A stretch of 64,000 nt of DNA from Octopus vulgaris. Taxonomy: Eukaryota. The DNA lies in the NCBI GenBank assembly GCA_951406725.2, contig OX597825.1:2480001-2544000 (forward strand). The letters run 5' to 3'. The position numbers were made by a program, and so were the translations under genes. The notes under the pieces are model-generated. The model did not search any database and was not told the DNA's origin. It was given only the letters and a program-made list of their open reading frames with translations. This document shows, piece by piece, positions 37,115-64,000 of the stretch (position 1 is the stretch's first letter; each line of letters opens with the position of its first letter).

Positions 37115-37502
37115 ATAAATAAGGGGCAAAGGAAAAATTTATTTGGGTATATGCTGAAAATAGAGGCTAAATTGTCTAACCACATTTACTTTTTCCACTA
37201 TCATTATTAAACACTTGTGGAAACGAGGAAGCAAGCCAACAAATATTCGTAGGAATTTAGATATCTCCGTATCGGCCCGATTTCAGGATTAATACAAAAG
37301 GATTATTACTTCATCAGCGAAGACACAGTGAAATAAACGGGGTACTTATAGGTATGCTTGACATGGTGTCTGCTTTTCCGTGGGTCTGTATCAGTATTAC
37401 ATTTATTTGCGTAATAACAGTGAAAACATTTAATGTGGTTAGATGATTTAGCGTCTATTTTCACATTACAAGCAAACAAATGTTTTGTTTGCCCTTATTT
37501 AA
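37115..37502. mobile_element. Foldback element with ~95-bp imperfect inverted arms enclosing an HHR (PLE pLTR-like)
   Basis: aaataaggggcaaa..gaaaatagaggctaaattgtctaaccacatt is inverted relative to aatgtggttagatgatttagcgtctattttc..tttgcccttattt. Confidence 0.65.
37264..37323 (-). ncRNA. Type I hammerhead ribozyme motif
   Basis: Minus: ucuucg CUGAUGA ag-uaaua..uauua-auc-cu GAAA ucgg-g-ccga UA cggaga. 6-bp stem I, intact core, AUA triplet. Confidence 0.75.
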
Positions 37503-41724: not shown

Positions 41725-43418
41725 GTGTGTGTGTGTGCTGTTATATAGCTAGATAAGTAGATAGATGCATACATACATATATACATATATACATAAATAG
41801 TTAGATATATATACAGGCGGCTAGATGTTTGACGGGAGGGATGGTGGGAGAGCGGGAAATAAGGAGAGATGATACAAGTGCGGAAAGTAATACCAACTCG
41901 ATTCGCCAATATATTCTGCAACAATAATGTAATGACTCATTTGCTATTGATGCCAGCCATTATCTAATGGTAGCGAAGGAACAATAAGTTTCCGTAGCAG
42001 ACTGGACTCACTGGCGAAACTGAATACACAGCTGAAAGTTCCCAACTATTATATTTCAATAATGTAGATTTTACGTTTATTGTTTCATAAGTAATCGCTT
42101 CTCTCCTGGTTGTGTTTCCGTTGATTTTTTTTTTCCTTTTTGTGCATATTTCGTGCTGTTTTGTCTGCTTGTATTTTGATTTGTTTCGTCATGTTTGTAT
42201 TTCTTAATTACTGCAACGATTTTCGAGTTGATTTTATTTTTCTTCCAATTTCATTCTTTGTGATTTTCGTATATTTTTCTATTATTCTGCTTTAATTGTT
42301 TTCATTCTATTTATATTTATATTTCATTCTGCTTTTATTTTCCTCAATTAAATTTCTTTGTTTTTATTCTATTTTCTTGTTTCACCTCTTTCTCTCTAGG
42401 TGTGTATGTTCAAAAATTTTGTATTTCCTATTTACTGCATGCATTTTTCTTTGTTTTTCTTTCGAGATTGTCTCATATTTTCCATTCCATTGTTTGTTTG
42501 GCAATTATTTTCCTTGGTTTGTGTTTTCATGTTTTTGTATTTTTCAAATAATATTTCTTTTTGTACGCTAGTGATAAAGCTAAAAAATTAATCATAGACT
42601 TAGCTAATCTCTTTTCGTGTCTGATTTAATTGCCTCTATAGTCACAGTCTGAACCACATTACAGCAACACAATCAGCGTCAGTAAAAGAGTCAAACAAGC
42701 GTTACTATTGCGGCTTTGTTTCACGCATGACTGAATACACAATGAAATTACACAACAAGTGTATATAATAGGTTTGACATGACCCCAAAGTCACGTTAAA
42801 TATTGCACCTGTGTGCAATATTTTCTTTGTTTTCCTTCGGTTTTTGTTTACCTTTCCTGCATGTCTGAATAACAAGCTATAAATAGGTGGAAGGCAGAAC
42901 ATGAGCCGGTATGTTAAGAATAATCATTACAAAAGAATATTAAAAATACTTCCATTTCTTTTTCACTAGTCTTTCAGTTTGCAATGCTTCTCTGTGTTAG
43001 TTATGCTATGTGTGTGTGTTTGTGTGTGTGTATACTTGTTTTGTCTCTATGTGTGTGTCTGTGTATGCATCTAGTACATTTCATATCCGTAGCATGGCAC
43101 TTAGTACTCCAGAACAGAGCCTCTCACAGGGACAGGGACGTGATTTTCTCCTGGAAAATTATGTTAAAGGTACATGTGACATTGTAATGTGTACACGCAC
43201 GTCAGTTTAGAAGTAGATTCATGATACAACAAATATATCTTCCTTATTGAAAGATATTGATATATCCCAACCACCGAAAAGTAACTAGACTTGCACACAT
43301 ACATATGTACAGTGATATATACACACAGATATACATAGACATATATATAATTATATAAATCAATACATAGATATACATAGATAGACACATATCTATACAT
43401 ATGCAGATAGGTATAAAG

Positions 43419-43450
<32 letters not shown>

Positions 43451-43592
43451 AATATAAGAGAGTGGTCACTATATTGCTCACTCTAGCACCAGTTAATCCA
43501 AAAGGTTTCAACCACGAAAATACATGTTTCCCATGAAAGTCAGTACGATTGTTAGCTCACACGGACAGGGCAAATAAAAAATAACAAAAATA

Positions 43593-43689
43593 CAGATTAT
43601 TTTGGGACAATTGTTTCGCTATTAATGAATTAAATGTAATTTTACTTACAAAAAAAATCCATTTGTAGCTCGTCAGCCAAAACTATCTG
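43593..43689 (-). ncRNA. Type I hammerhead ribozyme, inverted-arm copy
   Basis: Reverse complement of the 44524-44620 motif. Confidence 0.88.
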
Positions 43690-44523
43690 GATGAAATCCA
43701 CTCAATCACACGCCAGATTTTACCATAACGATAAATACGCGTGTGGTTCAATTGATTACATCCGACGTTATAATTCAAATGCCCCAACCAACAGCGCGCC
43801 AAACTTTCACGGAAAACAAATACAGCATTTAGAAATAAATGCAGCATAATTATAATTAATTAATAAGGGTGAGAGAATTAGATACTAATTTAATAGTATA
43901 TTTATTCAACACCAAGTGGCCTAGTGCTCCGAGAAACCTGGATTATTATAATATTTTATAACATATTATAATATTTTTACAAAATAAATATAAGAGAGTG
44001 GTCACTATATTGCTCACTCTAGCACCAGTTAATCCAAAAGGTTTCAACCACGAAAATACATGTTTCCCATGAAAGTCAGTACGATTGTTAGCTCACACGG
44101 ACAGGGCAAATAAAAAATAACAAAAATACAGATTATTTTGGGACAATTGTTTCGCTATTAATGAATTGAAACCTTTTGGATTAACTGGTGCTAGAGTGAG
44201 CAATATAGTGACCACTCTCTTATATTTATTTTGTAAAAATATTATAATATGTTATAAAATATTATAATAATCCAGGTTTCTCGGAGCACTAGGCCACTTG
44301 GTGTTGAATAAATATACTATTAAATTAGTATCTAATTCTCTCACCCTTATTAATTAATTATAATTATGCTGCATTTATTTCTAAATGCTGTATTTGTTTT
44401 CCGTGAAAGTTTGGCGCGCTGTTGGTTGGGGCATTTGAATTATAACGTCGGATGTAATCAATTGAACCACACGCGTATTTATCGTTATGGTAAAATCTGG
44501 CGTGTGATTGAGTGGATTTCATC

Positions 44524-44620
44524 CAGATAGTTTTGGCTGACGAGCTACAAATGGATTTTTTTTGTAAGTAAAATTACATTTAATTCATTAATAGCGAAAC
44601 AATTGTCCCAAAATAATCTG
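44524..44620 (+). ncRNA. Type I hammerhead ribozyme, predicted cleavage after C44607
   Basis: cagauaguuuugg CUGACGA gcua[aauggauu/aauucauu; uguaa/uuaca]uagc GAAA caauug UC ccaaaauaaucug. 13-position stem I with one mismatch, long stem II, palindromic stem III, GUC triplet. Confidence 0.9.
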
Positions 44621-45059
44621 TATTTTTGTTATTTTTTATTTGCCCTGTCCGTGTGAGCTAACAATCGTACTGACTTTCATGGGAAACATGTATTTTCGTG
44701 GTTGAAACCTTTTGGATTAACTGGTGCTAGAGTGAGCAATATAGTGACCACTCTCTTATATTTATTTTGTAAAAATATTATAATATGTTATAAAATATTA
44801 TAATAATCCAGGTTTCTCGGAGCACTAGGCCACTTGGTGTTGAATAAATATACTATTAAATTAGTATCTAATTCTCTCACCCTTATTAATTAATTATAAT
44901 TATGCTGCATTTATTTCTAAATGCTGTATTTGTTTTCCGTGAAAGTTTGGCGCGCTGTTGGTTGGGGCATTTGAATTATAACGTCGGATGTAATCAATTG
45001 AACCACACGCGTATTTATCGTTATGGTAAAATCTGGCGTGTGATTGAGTGGATTTCATC

Positions 45060-45155
45060 CAGATAGTTTTGGCTGACGAGCTACAAATGGATTTTTTTGT
45101 AAGTAAAATTACATTTAATTCATTAATAGCGAAACAATTGTCCCAAAATAATCTG
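45060..45155 (+). ncRNA. Type I hammerhead ribozyme, predicted cleavage after C45142
   Basis: Same as the 44524 copy apart from one fewer T in the stem II T-run. Confidence 0.9.
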
Positions 45156-45434
45156 TATTTTTGTTATTTTTTATTTGCCCTGTCCGTGTGAGCTAACAAT
45201 CGTACTGACTTTCATGGGAAACATGTATTTTCGTGGTTGAAACCTTTTGGATTAACTGGTGCTAGAGTGAGCAATATAGTGACCACTCTCTTATATTTAT
45301 TTTGTAAAAATATTATAATATGTTATAAAATATTATAATAATCCAGGTTTCTCGAGCACTAGGCCACTTGGTCTATTAAATTAGAATCTAATTCTCTCAC
45401 CCTTATTAATTAATTATATATATATATATATATT

Positions 45435-56338: not shown

Positions 56339-57521
56339 CAGTAATTTTATTTTTATAGCGTGCTTTCACTTCACTACCGAACGCAGCTCTGTGTGCCTTG
56401 GGTATGTGCTGTGATTTGTTGTGATGCTCTGATGGTTATTGTATGGAAAGTGTTCTGCGTAGGATGTGTGCAGTACCTAGTAGTGCAATTTTCTGTATGT
56501 TATATGTGTTTGTAAGTCCTGGTGTTTTTGTTATGTATTTGTCTGAAAATTTTTTTATCATGCCTAATGCACCTACTATGATAGGAATTGTTTCTGTTTT
56601 CAGATTCCACATTCTAGTTACCTCTATTTCCAGGTCTTTGTATTTTGAGAGTTTCTCCATTTCTTTTAGAGACACGTTGTCATCTGCCGGTATTGATACA
56701 TCAATTAGAAAGCATTTTTTTTCTTCATGATCTCTGACAACTATATCTGGTCTGTTGGCCTTAATTTCTCTATCTGTGTGTATCGGCATATCCCAGAGTA
56801 TGGTTGCTTTCTCGTTTTCTGTGACCTTTTCTGGTGTGTGCCGATACCATCTTTTTTCTGTTGTTATTCCATAATGTTGGCATAGCTTCCAATATATGTA
56901 GGTTCCAACTCTGTCATGTCTGTGAATATATTCCTTCTTAGCCAGGACTGGGCAGCTAGAGATAATATGATTCATTGTTTCTTGTCCATCTCCACATATT
57001 CTGCAGTTACTTGTAATATTTCTTTTCATTACATGTTTTTGGTAATTTCTGGTGGGTAGGCTTTGGTCTTGTGCTGCAATTAAAAATCCCTCTGTTTCTG
57101 CTTTGAGTCCTGAGCTTCTCAACCATTGCTGGGATTTTTCTTTGTCTATTTCTTTTGCGTTTAGTTTAGTGCAGTATTTACCACGAAGGGGCTTTTCTTG
57201 CCATCGTTTTATCATGGTTCGTTGCTGTTCTATTTTTAGTTTGGATTTCATTTGTTTTATAGCTTTTGTTGTTTCTTCATCATCTTCTTCTTCTTCTTCG
57301 TGTTTATTAGGTGGTATGATTTCTTGTTTGTATTTGTCAGCTTCCTTAAATACTGAGAACAGTTTTTTGTTTTGCTCGTGTTTTGCTGCTATCTGGATCA
57401 GTTTTCCTTCCTTCTGAAGTAGGTATTTTTGCAGTCCTATGGTGGTTATTTTATAGTAGTTTTCCAGCTGTATAAGGCCTCTACCACCTTCTATACGTTG
57501 TATATATAGTCTTTCTATGTC
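56339..57521 (-). mobile_element. 5'-truncated R4/Dong-type non-LTR retrotransposon inserted in (TAA)n
   Basis: Flanked by TTA/TAA runs on both sides. It carries the RLE-type ORF below plus a ~95-bp 3' UTR. Confidence 0.9.
56436..57521 (-). CDS. C-terminal part of a non-LTR retrotransposon ORF (post-RT region, CCHC knuckle, PD-(D/E)xK restriction-like endonuclease)
   Basis: Uninterrupted frame that extends 90 codons upstream of the listed Met: DIERLYIQRIEGGRGL..AAQDQSLPT..CRICGDGQETMNHIISSC..RHDRV..RPDIVV..LIDVSIP..EKLSKYKDL..PIIVGALG. Confidence 0.9.
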   Translation of the reverse strand, partial: DIERLYIQRIEGGRGLIQLENYYKITTIGLQKYLLQKEGKLIQIAAKHEQNKKLFSVFKEADKYKQEIIPPNKHEEEEEDDEETTKAIKQMKSKLKIEQQRTMIKRWQEKPLRGKYCTKLNAKEIDKEKSQQWLRSSGLKAETEGFLIAAQDQSLPTRNYQKHVMKRNITSNCRICGDGQETMNHIISSCPVLAKKEYIHRHDRVGTYIYWKLCQHYGITTEKRWYRHTPEKVTENEKATILWDMPIHTDREIKANRPDIVVRDHEEKKCFLIDVSIPADDNVSLKEMEKLSKYKDLEIEVTRMWNLKTETIPIIVGALGMIKKFSDKYITKTPGLTNTYNIQKIALLGTAHILRRTLSIQ

Positions 57522-62790: not shown

Positions 62791-63329
62791 ATTATCTAAA
62801 TTATGTCATTACGTTGAAATAGCTCTTCTATACTGAATATATACGTACTTATGAGCATGTCAGCGAAAGCTATACACATTGGTGGAAAAATACCTAATAA
62901 ATCAGAGTCAAAACTTACGGCTACAATAACATATATATATATATATTATTGTATTATATATAAGGACAATTACTAACTGGAACCCGGACATACATATGTG
63001 CCACTTTGGATCCTAATGTAAGCGTTATTAATAATATTATGAATGATAATAATGGTAACATTAATAGTATTGACAACGATAATGATGCTAACTTTAATGA
63101 CACTTTGGAAATTAGTAGGAAGTAATATAATGTACTATTGACTATGTATATTTGCATCTAGGTACTAATATGTGTATGTTTATTATCACAATATTAAGTT
63201 GAAAAACTGAAACATTGAATGTGGAACATATATATGTTTACTAATTTATATTATTTATTTACATTATTATGCATATGTATATTTTTATATATATAGGAGT
63301 GTGAGTATATGCACTCATATGTATATGTA

Positions 63330-63460
63330 TATCTCCGAAGAGACCTTATGATATTTTTGTAAATGTCTCATTTATATCTATATATTGACCTACCATAAAA
63401 GGCTAATATTGGTAAAATGAGACATACTTATCTACATAGCCGAAACAGCTGTTAACGCTA
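63330..63460 (+). ncRNA. Decayed hammerhead remnant with a long stem II
   Basis: CCGAAGA..[atgtctcattt/aaatgagacat 11-bp stem]..GAAA cagcug UU. Stem I is lost. Confidence 0.35.
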
Positions 63461-63575
63461 CTGTATATAACTCACTTTGATATTTATCATTGTTTGATTT
63501 CACTTTTTCAATATCAGCGACAGTGGACGCTGGAAAAAGTATAAGTATTTGTGAAGGAAATCTAATTCTCGGCGA

Positions 63576-63645
63576 CAACTATGATTGTCACACGCTGATG
63601 AGAGGTCAATACCTCGAAACTCGAGTCCGTGTGTATCATAAGTTG
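63576..63645 (+). ncRNA. Canonical type I hammerhead ribozyme, predicted cleavage after C63627
   Basis: caac-uaugau-ugu-cacacg CUGAUGA gagg-ucaaua-ccuc GAAA cucgag UC cgugug-u-aucaua-a-guug. All core nucleotides present and perfect stems. Confidence 0.92.
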
Positions 63646-63793
63646 AAGACGGGGAGGATGACTTCCCTTTACAAATACTTACAGGACACAGAAAGTGTGT
63701 CTATGGCCAGCTGGAGGAATGTGTCCTCCTGGGGCTAAAAACTACAGTAGCATCCACCCTTAGGGGTAGCCATAATGATATGGCAAATATACG

Positions 63794-63848
<55 letters not shown>

Positions 63849-64000
63849 AAACCTGAGTGTTTTTTTTTTCAGATATACATTATAACATGTTATAATGTAT
63901 ATCTGAAAGAAAAGAAAATGCTAGCAGAAATACTAAAAGCGCGACGCTTCATAGATTGGCCTTCAATCCATGTGCAGAATCATGCTGCACCTGCGGCACA

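Follow-up and report, generated by a model that had tools for sequence, protein, structure and literature searches.

A predicted hammerhead in Octopus vulgaris lies in a young retrozyme family that is likely copied into (TA)n by Penelope-type enzymes

A stretch of 64,000 nucleotides of the Octopus vulgaris genome (contig OX597825.1, positions 2,480,001 to 2,544,000; hereafter the window) contains a predicted hammerhead ribozyme within a member of a young retrozyme family, termed family A. We propose that this family is likely copied into (TA)n microsatellites by Penelope-type enzymes, and that the window copy is likely a single chimera, formed by a template switch between family A and a second family, termed family B; we assign this combined reading a probability of roughly 0.78. 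The argument draws on sequence comparison and predicted folding, and papers given by accession or DOI are cited from their accessible passages.

The hammerhead and the retrozyme family that carries it

The hammerhead was originally noticed by a sequence-only reading of the window, and every element listed at that time can be found at positions 63576-63645, including the core, stem I with its UGU/U loop, stem II with loop UCAAUA, and the sequence CUCGAG. The whole motif was assigned by sequence reading, Rfam, alignment and folding, and its parts by sequence reading:

63576-63645 (+): type I hammerhead with extended, bulged stem I
63576-63579 / 63642-63645 (+): stem I outer helix, 4 bp
63580-63585 / 63635-63640 (+): stem I middle helix, 6 bp, with bulged A at 63641
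63586-63588 / 63634 (+): stem I internal loop, UGU facing U
63589-63594 / 63628-63633 (+): stem I inner helix, 6 bp
63595-63601 (+): core CUGAUGA
63602-63605 / 63612-63615 (+): stem II, GAGG / CCUC, 4 bp, with 6-nt loop UCAAUA
63616-63619 (+): GAAA
63620-63625 (+): CUCGAG, with GUC ahead of the predicted cut
63627/63628 (+): predicted cut site, unit positions 182/183 of family A

The motif has the boxes CUGANGA, GAAA and NUH, three stems and an open stem I, and sequence reading thus bears out the canonical type I geometry first proposed. When the window is scanned with a strict descriptor of the canonical type I hammerhead, a single motif comes up, and 200 shuffles yield none. Rfam Hammerhead_1 (RF00163) matches positions 63589-63633 with 30.3 bits (E=3.5e-5), short of the 34 bits needed for gathering, and at that threshold the whole window yields no Rfam match. 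Taken as a predicted type I motif, the hammerhead is confirmed as real. CUCGAG is indeed palindromic as claimed, but the 6-nt stem III read into it is reduced to 2 bp (A15.1-U16.1 and C-G), which close a UCGA loop within an 8-nt palindrome.

This short stem III has consequences for the predicted fold. Folded as a hammerhead, the 70-mer reaches -16.3 kcal/mol vs a predicted minimum of -21.9 kcal/mol, so that an alternative fold lies 5.6 kcal/mol lower, and stem III is absent from the predicted monomer fold. In the context of positions 62960-63797, pair probabilities are 0.5-1.0 for stem I, ~0.43 for stem II and ~0 for stem III. Pairing of the 8-nt palindrome with itself would give 8 bp at -12.1 kcal/mol. 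Because stem III has only 2 bp and its loop is self-complementary, a lone copy may cut worse than tandem copies; these two features point to better cutting as a double hammerhead, for which a lone copy would lack the partner in cis.

Conservation was assessed in 20 hammerheads of family A and its sister subfamilies, a set of related sequences with the core and four pairs fixed by the search pattern. In these, 88.9% of cells are paired and 27 cells carry a two-sided change, compared with 11.4 in shuffled alignments (0/500), so the stems are kept by compensatory change in homologues; a lack of such conservation had been named beforehand as grounds for rejecting the motif. Counted as pairs, two-sided change does not exceed the shuffles (7 vs 5.6; 99/500), nor does the stem III extension (53/500), nor do the outer positions of loop III, which are U-A, U-G or C-G in 19 of 20 aligned rows. 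Among 39 distinct sequences, the stem I bulge is UGU in 34 and the facing base U in all 39, the first base of loop II is U in 39 and its last base A in 38, and loop III is self-complementary in 33. The conserved bulge and loops fit both a tertiary contact between stem I and loop II and a double hammerhead, and are proof of neither. Ten of the 39 sister sequences have a non-standard base pair in stem II; in sister subfamilies (L153-L182) a stem II pair is changed from G-C to A-U, U-A, U.U or C.A.

The sequences surrounding the hammerhead resolve into two elements between (TA)n tracts:

62931-62946: left-hand (TA)n, which likely makes up one half of the target microsatellite (sequence reading)
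62960-63452 (+): family B 3' region (pLTR part), 5'-truncated (BLAST, alignment)
63335-63452 (+): 5' part of the family B predicted hammerhead, stopping 1 nt before its predicted cut (alignment), with core CCGAAGA at 63335-63341, GAAA at 63442-63445, palindrome CAGCTG, and U16.1 at 63452
63450-63452 (+): TGT microhomology, B end equal to A unit positions 5-7, the chimeric junction
63450-63797 (+): family A monomer, 348 bp, unit positions 5-352 of a 352/353-bp non-coding repeat (BLASTN, alignment)
63450-63491 (+): unit positions 5-46, seen in other insertions as the ~46-nt 'tail' on one side
63798-63841: (TA)22 directly after the family A fixed 3' end at unit 352 (sequence reading)

By alignment, the segment that carries the hammerhead is a near-complete monomer of a young, non-coding 352-bp non-LTR retrozyme family. 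It had been described as a ~320-bp segment ending at (TA)n at 63798; the (TA)22 tract is present at that point, and the length is corrected to 348 bp. A search with positions 63480-63800, in which the best 40 of 2618 candidates were scored, gave 115 matches at 96-98% identity, many of them spaced 352 bp apart. A 33-nt core of family A has 446 exact copies in the genome (reversed-pattern control, 0), distributed as hundreds of dispersed short insertions on both strands. A looser pattern, excluding the main loop II, finds 439 further hammerheads of the same geometry; 30 fetched from these belong to sister subfamilies that are 74-92% identical to the family A unit. Core position 7 is C in all 100 among the 446 matches listed, and the U of the window copy is common to only 6 copies.

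Family A has the characteristics of a retrozyme, namely a non-coding unit within ~170-400 bp, one type I hammerhead, tandem arrangement, dispersed multicopy distribution and GC <45% (here 41%). Pfam gives no match for the unit's longest frame, of 85 aa, and the natural cut-to-cut monomer has a compact predicted fold (z=-6.46). At least two consecutive complete hammerheads, the mark of an 'active' locus (Li et al., 2026), occur at many other family A loci; the window copy is a monomer. Against the youngest copies, which are a median of 1 away from their own nearest neighbours, it has 8-10 mismatches and is thus an older member of the family. With one ribozyme, without a tail and older than most of family A, the window copy is probably a dead-end passenger. 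In contigs from sequencing runs, a head-to-tail A junction appears in four runs in which RNA is only guessed, twice as 383-nt contigs; such contigs can be obtained from a circle, a multimer or DNA, and are therefore not counted as evidence of expression.

Other hammerhead-like sequences occur in the window. The 536-bp array at 43400-45430 (cores at 43676 on the minus strand and at 44537 and 45073 on the plus strand) is a separate two-armed insertion in (TA)n, and its hammerhead has a long stem II, core CUGACGA and a palindromic loop III. Its sequence is unrelated to family A, whose unit has no BLASTN similarity to the array; the earlier suggestion that the hammerhead at 63576-63645 represents a different family thus holds. 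At ~37240-37330 (-), a hammerhead-like motif (core 37317) with a 9-bp stem I lies in a ~500-bp segment between microsatellites and is probably a PLE-type end.

Insertion anatomy and the search for a coding parent

The structure of family A insertions was derived from 42 loci, 23 from a best-hit search, which is biased towards full-length copies, and 19 from a pattern search with one fetch, with overlaps dropped; two of them, L032 and L037, look like one duplicated insertion. Units are arranged head-to-tail in 28 loci, 21 are two-armed with an inverted arm, and 34 have (TA)n on both outer sides. The 3' ends fall at two fixed points 46 nt apart: unit 352 accounts for 33 of 63 ends and 45-55 for 25, the other 5 lying elsewhere; (TA)n follows 58 of the 63. 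In 17 of the 21 two-armed loci, one arm ends at 352 and the other at 45-50, and no locus has two alike. The 5' ends are scattered, with 13 of 63 at or before unit 20 and none within 2 nt of the cut site, the latter being expected of a closed or uncut template. Two units of one locus differ by a median of 1 (41 pairs), units of different loci by a median of 4 (1729 pairs).

[quoted passage not shown] Family A has the partial tandems, the inverted arm, the tail and the microsatellite target, and judged from sequence its insertions carry a clear Penelope 'tail' or two-start signature. Like EN+ PLEs, it combines these with 5' truncation and a (TA)n target, and its one-end tail matches the distance between two internal RT starts (PMC8557442, PMC11167929). 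Unlike EN+ PLEs, family A encodes nothing, and its tail measures 46 nt vs 30-40 (PMC8557442). It also differs from a lizard PLE in that its starts are split one per arm (17/21), whereas no strand difference was reported for that element in vitro (PMC11167929).

Potential sources of the enzyme are present in the genome. They include a family encoding a 781-aa RT and GIY-YIG protein in open, intact-looking frames, for whose CxxCxxC-type linker we use the label 'Neptune-like', as well as families of the Hydra type, which have 940-1090-aa frames; the searches scored the best 150 of 6136 and 104 of 9505 candidates and thus sample the PLE families. The family A tail of 46 nt compares with 38 nt for the 781-aa family and ~174 nt for family B. 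In a mixed two-armed insertion (L025:1358-1850), 90 bp from the 3' end of the 781-aa element, inverted and 98.9% identical, are joined to an A monomer via a short fold-back, with (TA)n outside. Since the family A tail is nearer to 38 than to ~174 nt and this join exists, yet the window fusion is with family B, the partner enzyme leans slightly to the 781-aa type. The 781-aa element itself has a conserved hammerhead-like end (L096:5060-5110 and relatives L070-L095), in which the core TTGATAA is of the U3-A8 type, stem II has 5 bp and the loop is palindromic. To the right of (TA)22 in the window, a perfect 42-nt palindrome (63867-63908) has one arm that equals the 3' end of this element in 28 of 32 bases.

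The segment had earlier been likened to a solo pLTR, which would make it the remnant of an autonomous PLE still to be found and the 352-bp tandems its truncated ends. The insertion signature is the same as that of autonomous PLEs, Xenopus retrozymes are often homologous to pLTRs (10.64898/2026.07.22.740005), and the PLE families were only sampled. We nevertheless consider this improbable. The family A unit gives no significant BLASTN match to 38 GIY-YIG loci and 15 Hydra-type loci and is the terminal repeat of none of them; no RT or endonuclease (EN) frame adjoins a copy in 62 family A loci, or does so without intervening (TA)n in 30 sister loci; and the sequence upstream of unit position 1 in the 42 loci is the end of the previous unit, not coding sequence. 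Genome-wide, the unit start is changed in 12 copies; each of these is a rearrangement or a one-off junction, and no hammerhead-to-A fusion recurs among them. The A hammerhead is moreover canonical, whereas the PLEs examined here carry long-stem-II or minimal types. The coding parent not having been found among the examined loci, the solo pLTR comparison is not supported, and the segment is better described as a monomer of a non-coding tandem family. Two sets of candidates were set aside: PLE frames beside sister copies L173, L176 and L157 are separated from them by (TA)n and were taken as independent insertions, and two core copies 3250 bp apart, considered as a pLTR-ORF-pLTR arrangement, proved to be a duplication in a low-complexity repeat.

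Two further explanations dispense with a Penelope-type enzyme or give the window copy a role in its host. Head-to-tail units would also arise if the arrays were satellite DNA produced by unequal crossing-over without an RNA step, a model that has been discussed for retrozyme arrays (10.64898/2026.07.22.740005); dispersed insertions on both strands with fixed 3' ends and variable 5' truncation, together with inverted arms and (TA)n on both sides, are instead marks of target-primed reverse transcription, and leave this model with hardly any credibility. The intact core and stems, and the conserved intronic type I hammerheads of amniotes (PMC6155905), would suit a functional intronic ribozyme that cuts a host pre-mRNA. 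This is very unlikely for a recent multicopy insertion that shows ordinary drift and is a lone copy without a stem III partner, and in Xenopus genic regions are poor in retrozymes. Pfam revealed no host exon in the vicinity, though this is a weak test for short exons: none of 140 frames tested (198 candidates in the window and a 30-kb flank) reached the cut-off, and three weak matches all lay below it.

The junction with family B and breaks at predicted cut sites

Family B, judged by its motifs, fits the description of a Hydra-clade-like Penelope-like element. A 20-nt motif of the family has 546 copies in the genome, and longer copies (L149, L150, L254 and L255) join the 3' region to RT and GIY-YIG-type frames. 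The Hydra-clade motifs RWK, DKT and a CxCx5C linker, together with a GIY-YIG-type domain at the C-terminus, can be read in L150 and relatives; the copies seen have broken frames, and Pfam finds no RT or GIY-YIG match in the B RT/endonuclease frames. Hydra-clade PLEs share with family B RWK, DKT, the CxCx5C linker and the terminal CxxC and CxH, as well as a hammerhead in the 3' repeat and a (TA)n target (PMC8557442). Family B differs from them in its core CCGAAGA, its ~90-nt stem II insert, its tail of ~174 nt and its broken frames. The predicted B hammerhead has a 4-bp stem II bearing this insert and a palindromic loop III, and modelling of an intact B copy reproduces the drawn stems I and II (z=-2.66). 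Its core position 4 is C instead of U in nearly all copies (for example L105:1503-1640, and 63335-63341 in the window), a variant of which the accessible PLE literature passages hold no mention (PMC8557442).

The B part of the window is 95-98% identical to other copies but lacks the last ~245 bp present in them; its BLAST match extends to 62947 through low-complexity bases, and its hammerhead has private G>A changes at 63343 and 63438. All 29 other fetched B copies continue past the cut site, whereas the window copy ends at U16.1, one base short of it. The fused B and A unit has (TA)n on both outer sides. Its simplest account, on sequence grounds, would be a single insertion in which a template switch took place onto B RNA near its cut end. 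RNA ligation was rejected for this junction; with the last base of the cut product absent and microhomology present, a template switch fits better. A heterodimer of the A and B hammerheads was likewise discarded, the palindromes being not complementary. The B/A junction is bridged by no contig among those listed in eight runs, an absence that proves nothing.

The same junction could have been formed at the DNA level, with A inserting into (TA)n behind an older B, TGT joining the two, a ~245-bp deletion of target and a coincidental closeness to the cut site. We regard this as a real possibility, though one falling clearly short of even odds. A later A insertion with such a target deletion would yield the same junction, and only one B-to-A fusion was found in 11 break-pattern matches (~546 copies). 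TGT occurs 26 times in 738 nt of B, which allows for chance joining; equally, the TGT at the cut is only one of these 26 sites. Both halves carry similar private change (5/348 in A and 6/493 in B, some of the A changes being common to sister subfamilies), which speaks against A having joined an older B. Elsewhere, at L209:1486-1900, a family A sequence ends exactly at its predicted cut and is followed by a 5'-truncated young REL-endonuclease LINE, between (TAA)n tracts and with 1 nt of homology, and in L140, L197, L201 and L205 large deletions begin no more than 1 nt from the cut site; both observations speak against coincidence. A two-armed A piece at L222:800-1800, by contrast, joins a REL-endonuclease LINE within (TAA)n; the join is at unit 133 and not at the cut, which favours the DNA-level account.

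Break counts do not show an enrichment at cut sites. Intervals around the cut sites of B, the sisters and A gave 11, 9 and 6 break-pattern matches with 2 large breaks each, and 2 of these 6 large breaks are foreign joins. Four control intervals gave 3, 32, 7 and 3 matches with 1, ~5, 0 and 1 large breaks, and 2 foreign non-microsatellite joins, confined to two of the four intervals; one of these joins is the A/LINE fusion at L222. Similar breaks are thus seen at the controls; as denominators differ and each pattern misses some copies, no enrichment is claimed. The B and A fusion near a predicted cut is the one locus-specific curiosity; it is suggestive, may record a copying switch onto cut RNA and could be due to chance. 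A bolder claim, that the window chimera and L209 are genomic fossils of germline hammerhead cleavage, with cut 3' ends serving as landing sites for template jumps or ligation, is offered tentatively and seems rather unlikely at present. If true, Penelope-type hammerheads, including the C4 core variant, would cut in vivo, and retrozymes and retroelements would have a route for swapping parts.

L209 recalls the U6/LINE-1 chimeras made by ligation, in which an RNA with a 2',3'-cyclic-phosphate end is joined to a 5'-truncated retroelement and co-inserted (PMC6789731); the window junction differs from these in the absent last base of the cut product and in its microhomology, and both L209 and the window junction are single cases.

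The window also holds a LINE sequence of its own. Positions 56436-57521 (-) contain a 361-aa 3' fragment of a REL-endonuclease LINE, with a weak zf-RVT match, beside (TAA)n; we take this fragment to be R4/Dong-like.

Proposed mechanism and relation to known systems

The following sequence of events could reconcile these observations. Tandem family A copies would be transcribed, and their hammerheads would cut, best as a double hammerhead via the 8-nt palindrome, releasing ~352-nt monomers that may then be closed into circles. Unit 352 or ~46 would serve the RT as an internal start on the RNA, 170-216 nt downstream of the cut, with one start per DNA strand, and synthesis round the template would produce the partial tandems. 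At the window locus, synthesis would have started at unit 352 and proceeded almost one round to unit 5, where TGT would have paired with RNA of family B close beside the predicted cut end of that RNA. Hammerhead cutting is dispensable for lizard PLE insertion in vitro, and since uncut RNA is the main template there (PMC11167929), the layout could equally derive from a linear multimer or a circle. Reported cleavage is variable: invertebrate retrozyme monomers cut at ~0.8 and 0.1 per minute and axolotl ones need dimers (PMC7229834), and of 9 Xenopus retrozyme dimers, 8 failed to cut (10.64898/2026.07.22.740005).

Family A closely resembles the non-LTR retrozymes of metazoans. These have a non-coding unit of ~350 bp (350-390 in mussel, 330/350 in axolotl; PMC7229834), and share with family A one canonical type I hammerhead per unit, GC <45%, arrangement from monomers to multimers, a compact predicted fold and co-occurring PLEs (PMC7229834, 10.64898/2026.07.22.740005). 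Unlike them, family A has no pLTR parent that we found and is known here from DNA alone, and its strict two-end rule with a (TA)n target has no report in the accessible parts of these two sources. The accessible text of Cervera & de la Pena 2020 (PMC7229834) gives no match for octopus or cephalopod, and our literature search, with subscription papers and supplements outside its scope, found no cephalopod retrozymes and no fusions at hammerhead cut sites. The hammerhead itself is similar to those of Schistosoma Sm-alpha and amphibian satellite 2 in its 6-bp stem I and 4-bp stem II (RF00163, PMC6155905, PMC4209133), its 6-nt loop II ending AAUA (Rfam consensus), its short stem III and its palindromic loop. 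It differs from them in scoring under the Rfam gathering threshold, and its tertiary contact and rates are inferred from conservation.

The role of the hammerhead in PLEs has been stated as unclear (PMC8557442), and no RNA ends were found at the cut site of the lizard PLE (PMC11167929). If fusion junctions were to pile up at cut sites genome-wide, of which there are now single cases, this role would become testable from assemblies alone. Family A offers a short natural RNA for target-primed reverse transcription in vitro, and represents a well-resolved young retrozyme that supports the proposed, unproven mobilisation of animal retrozymes by Penelope enzymes.
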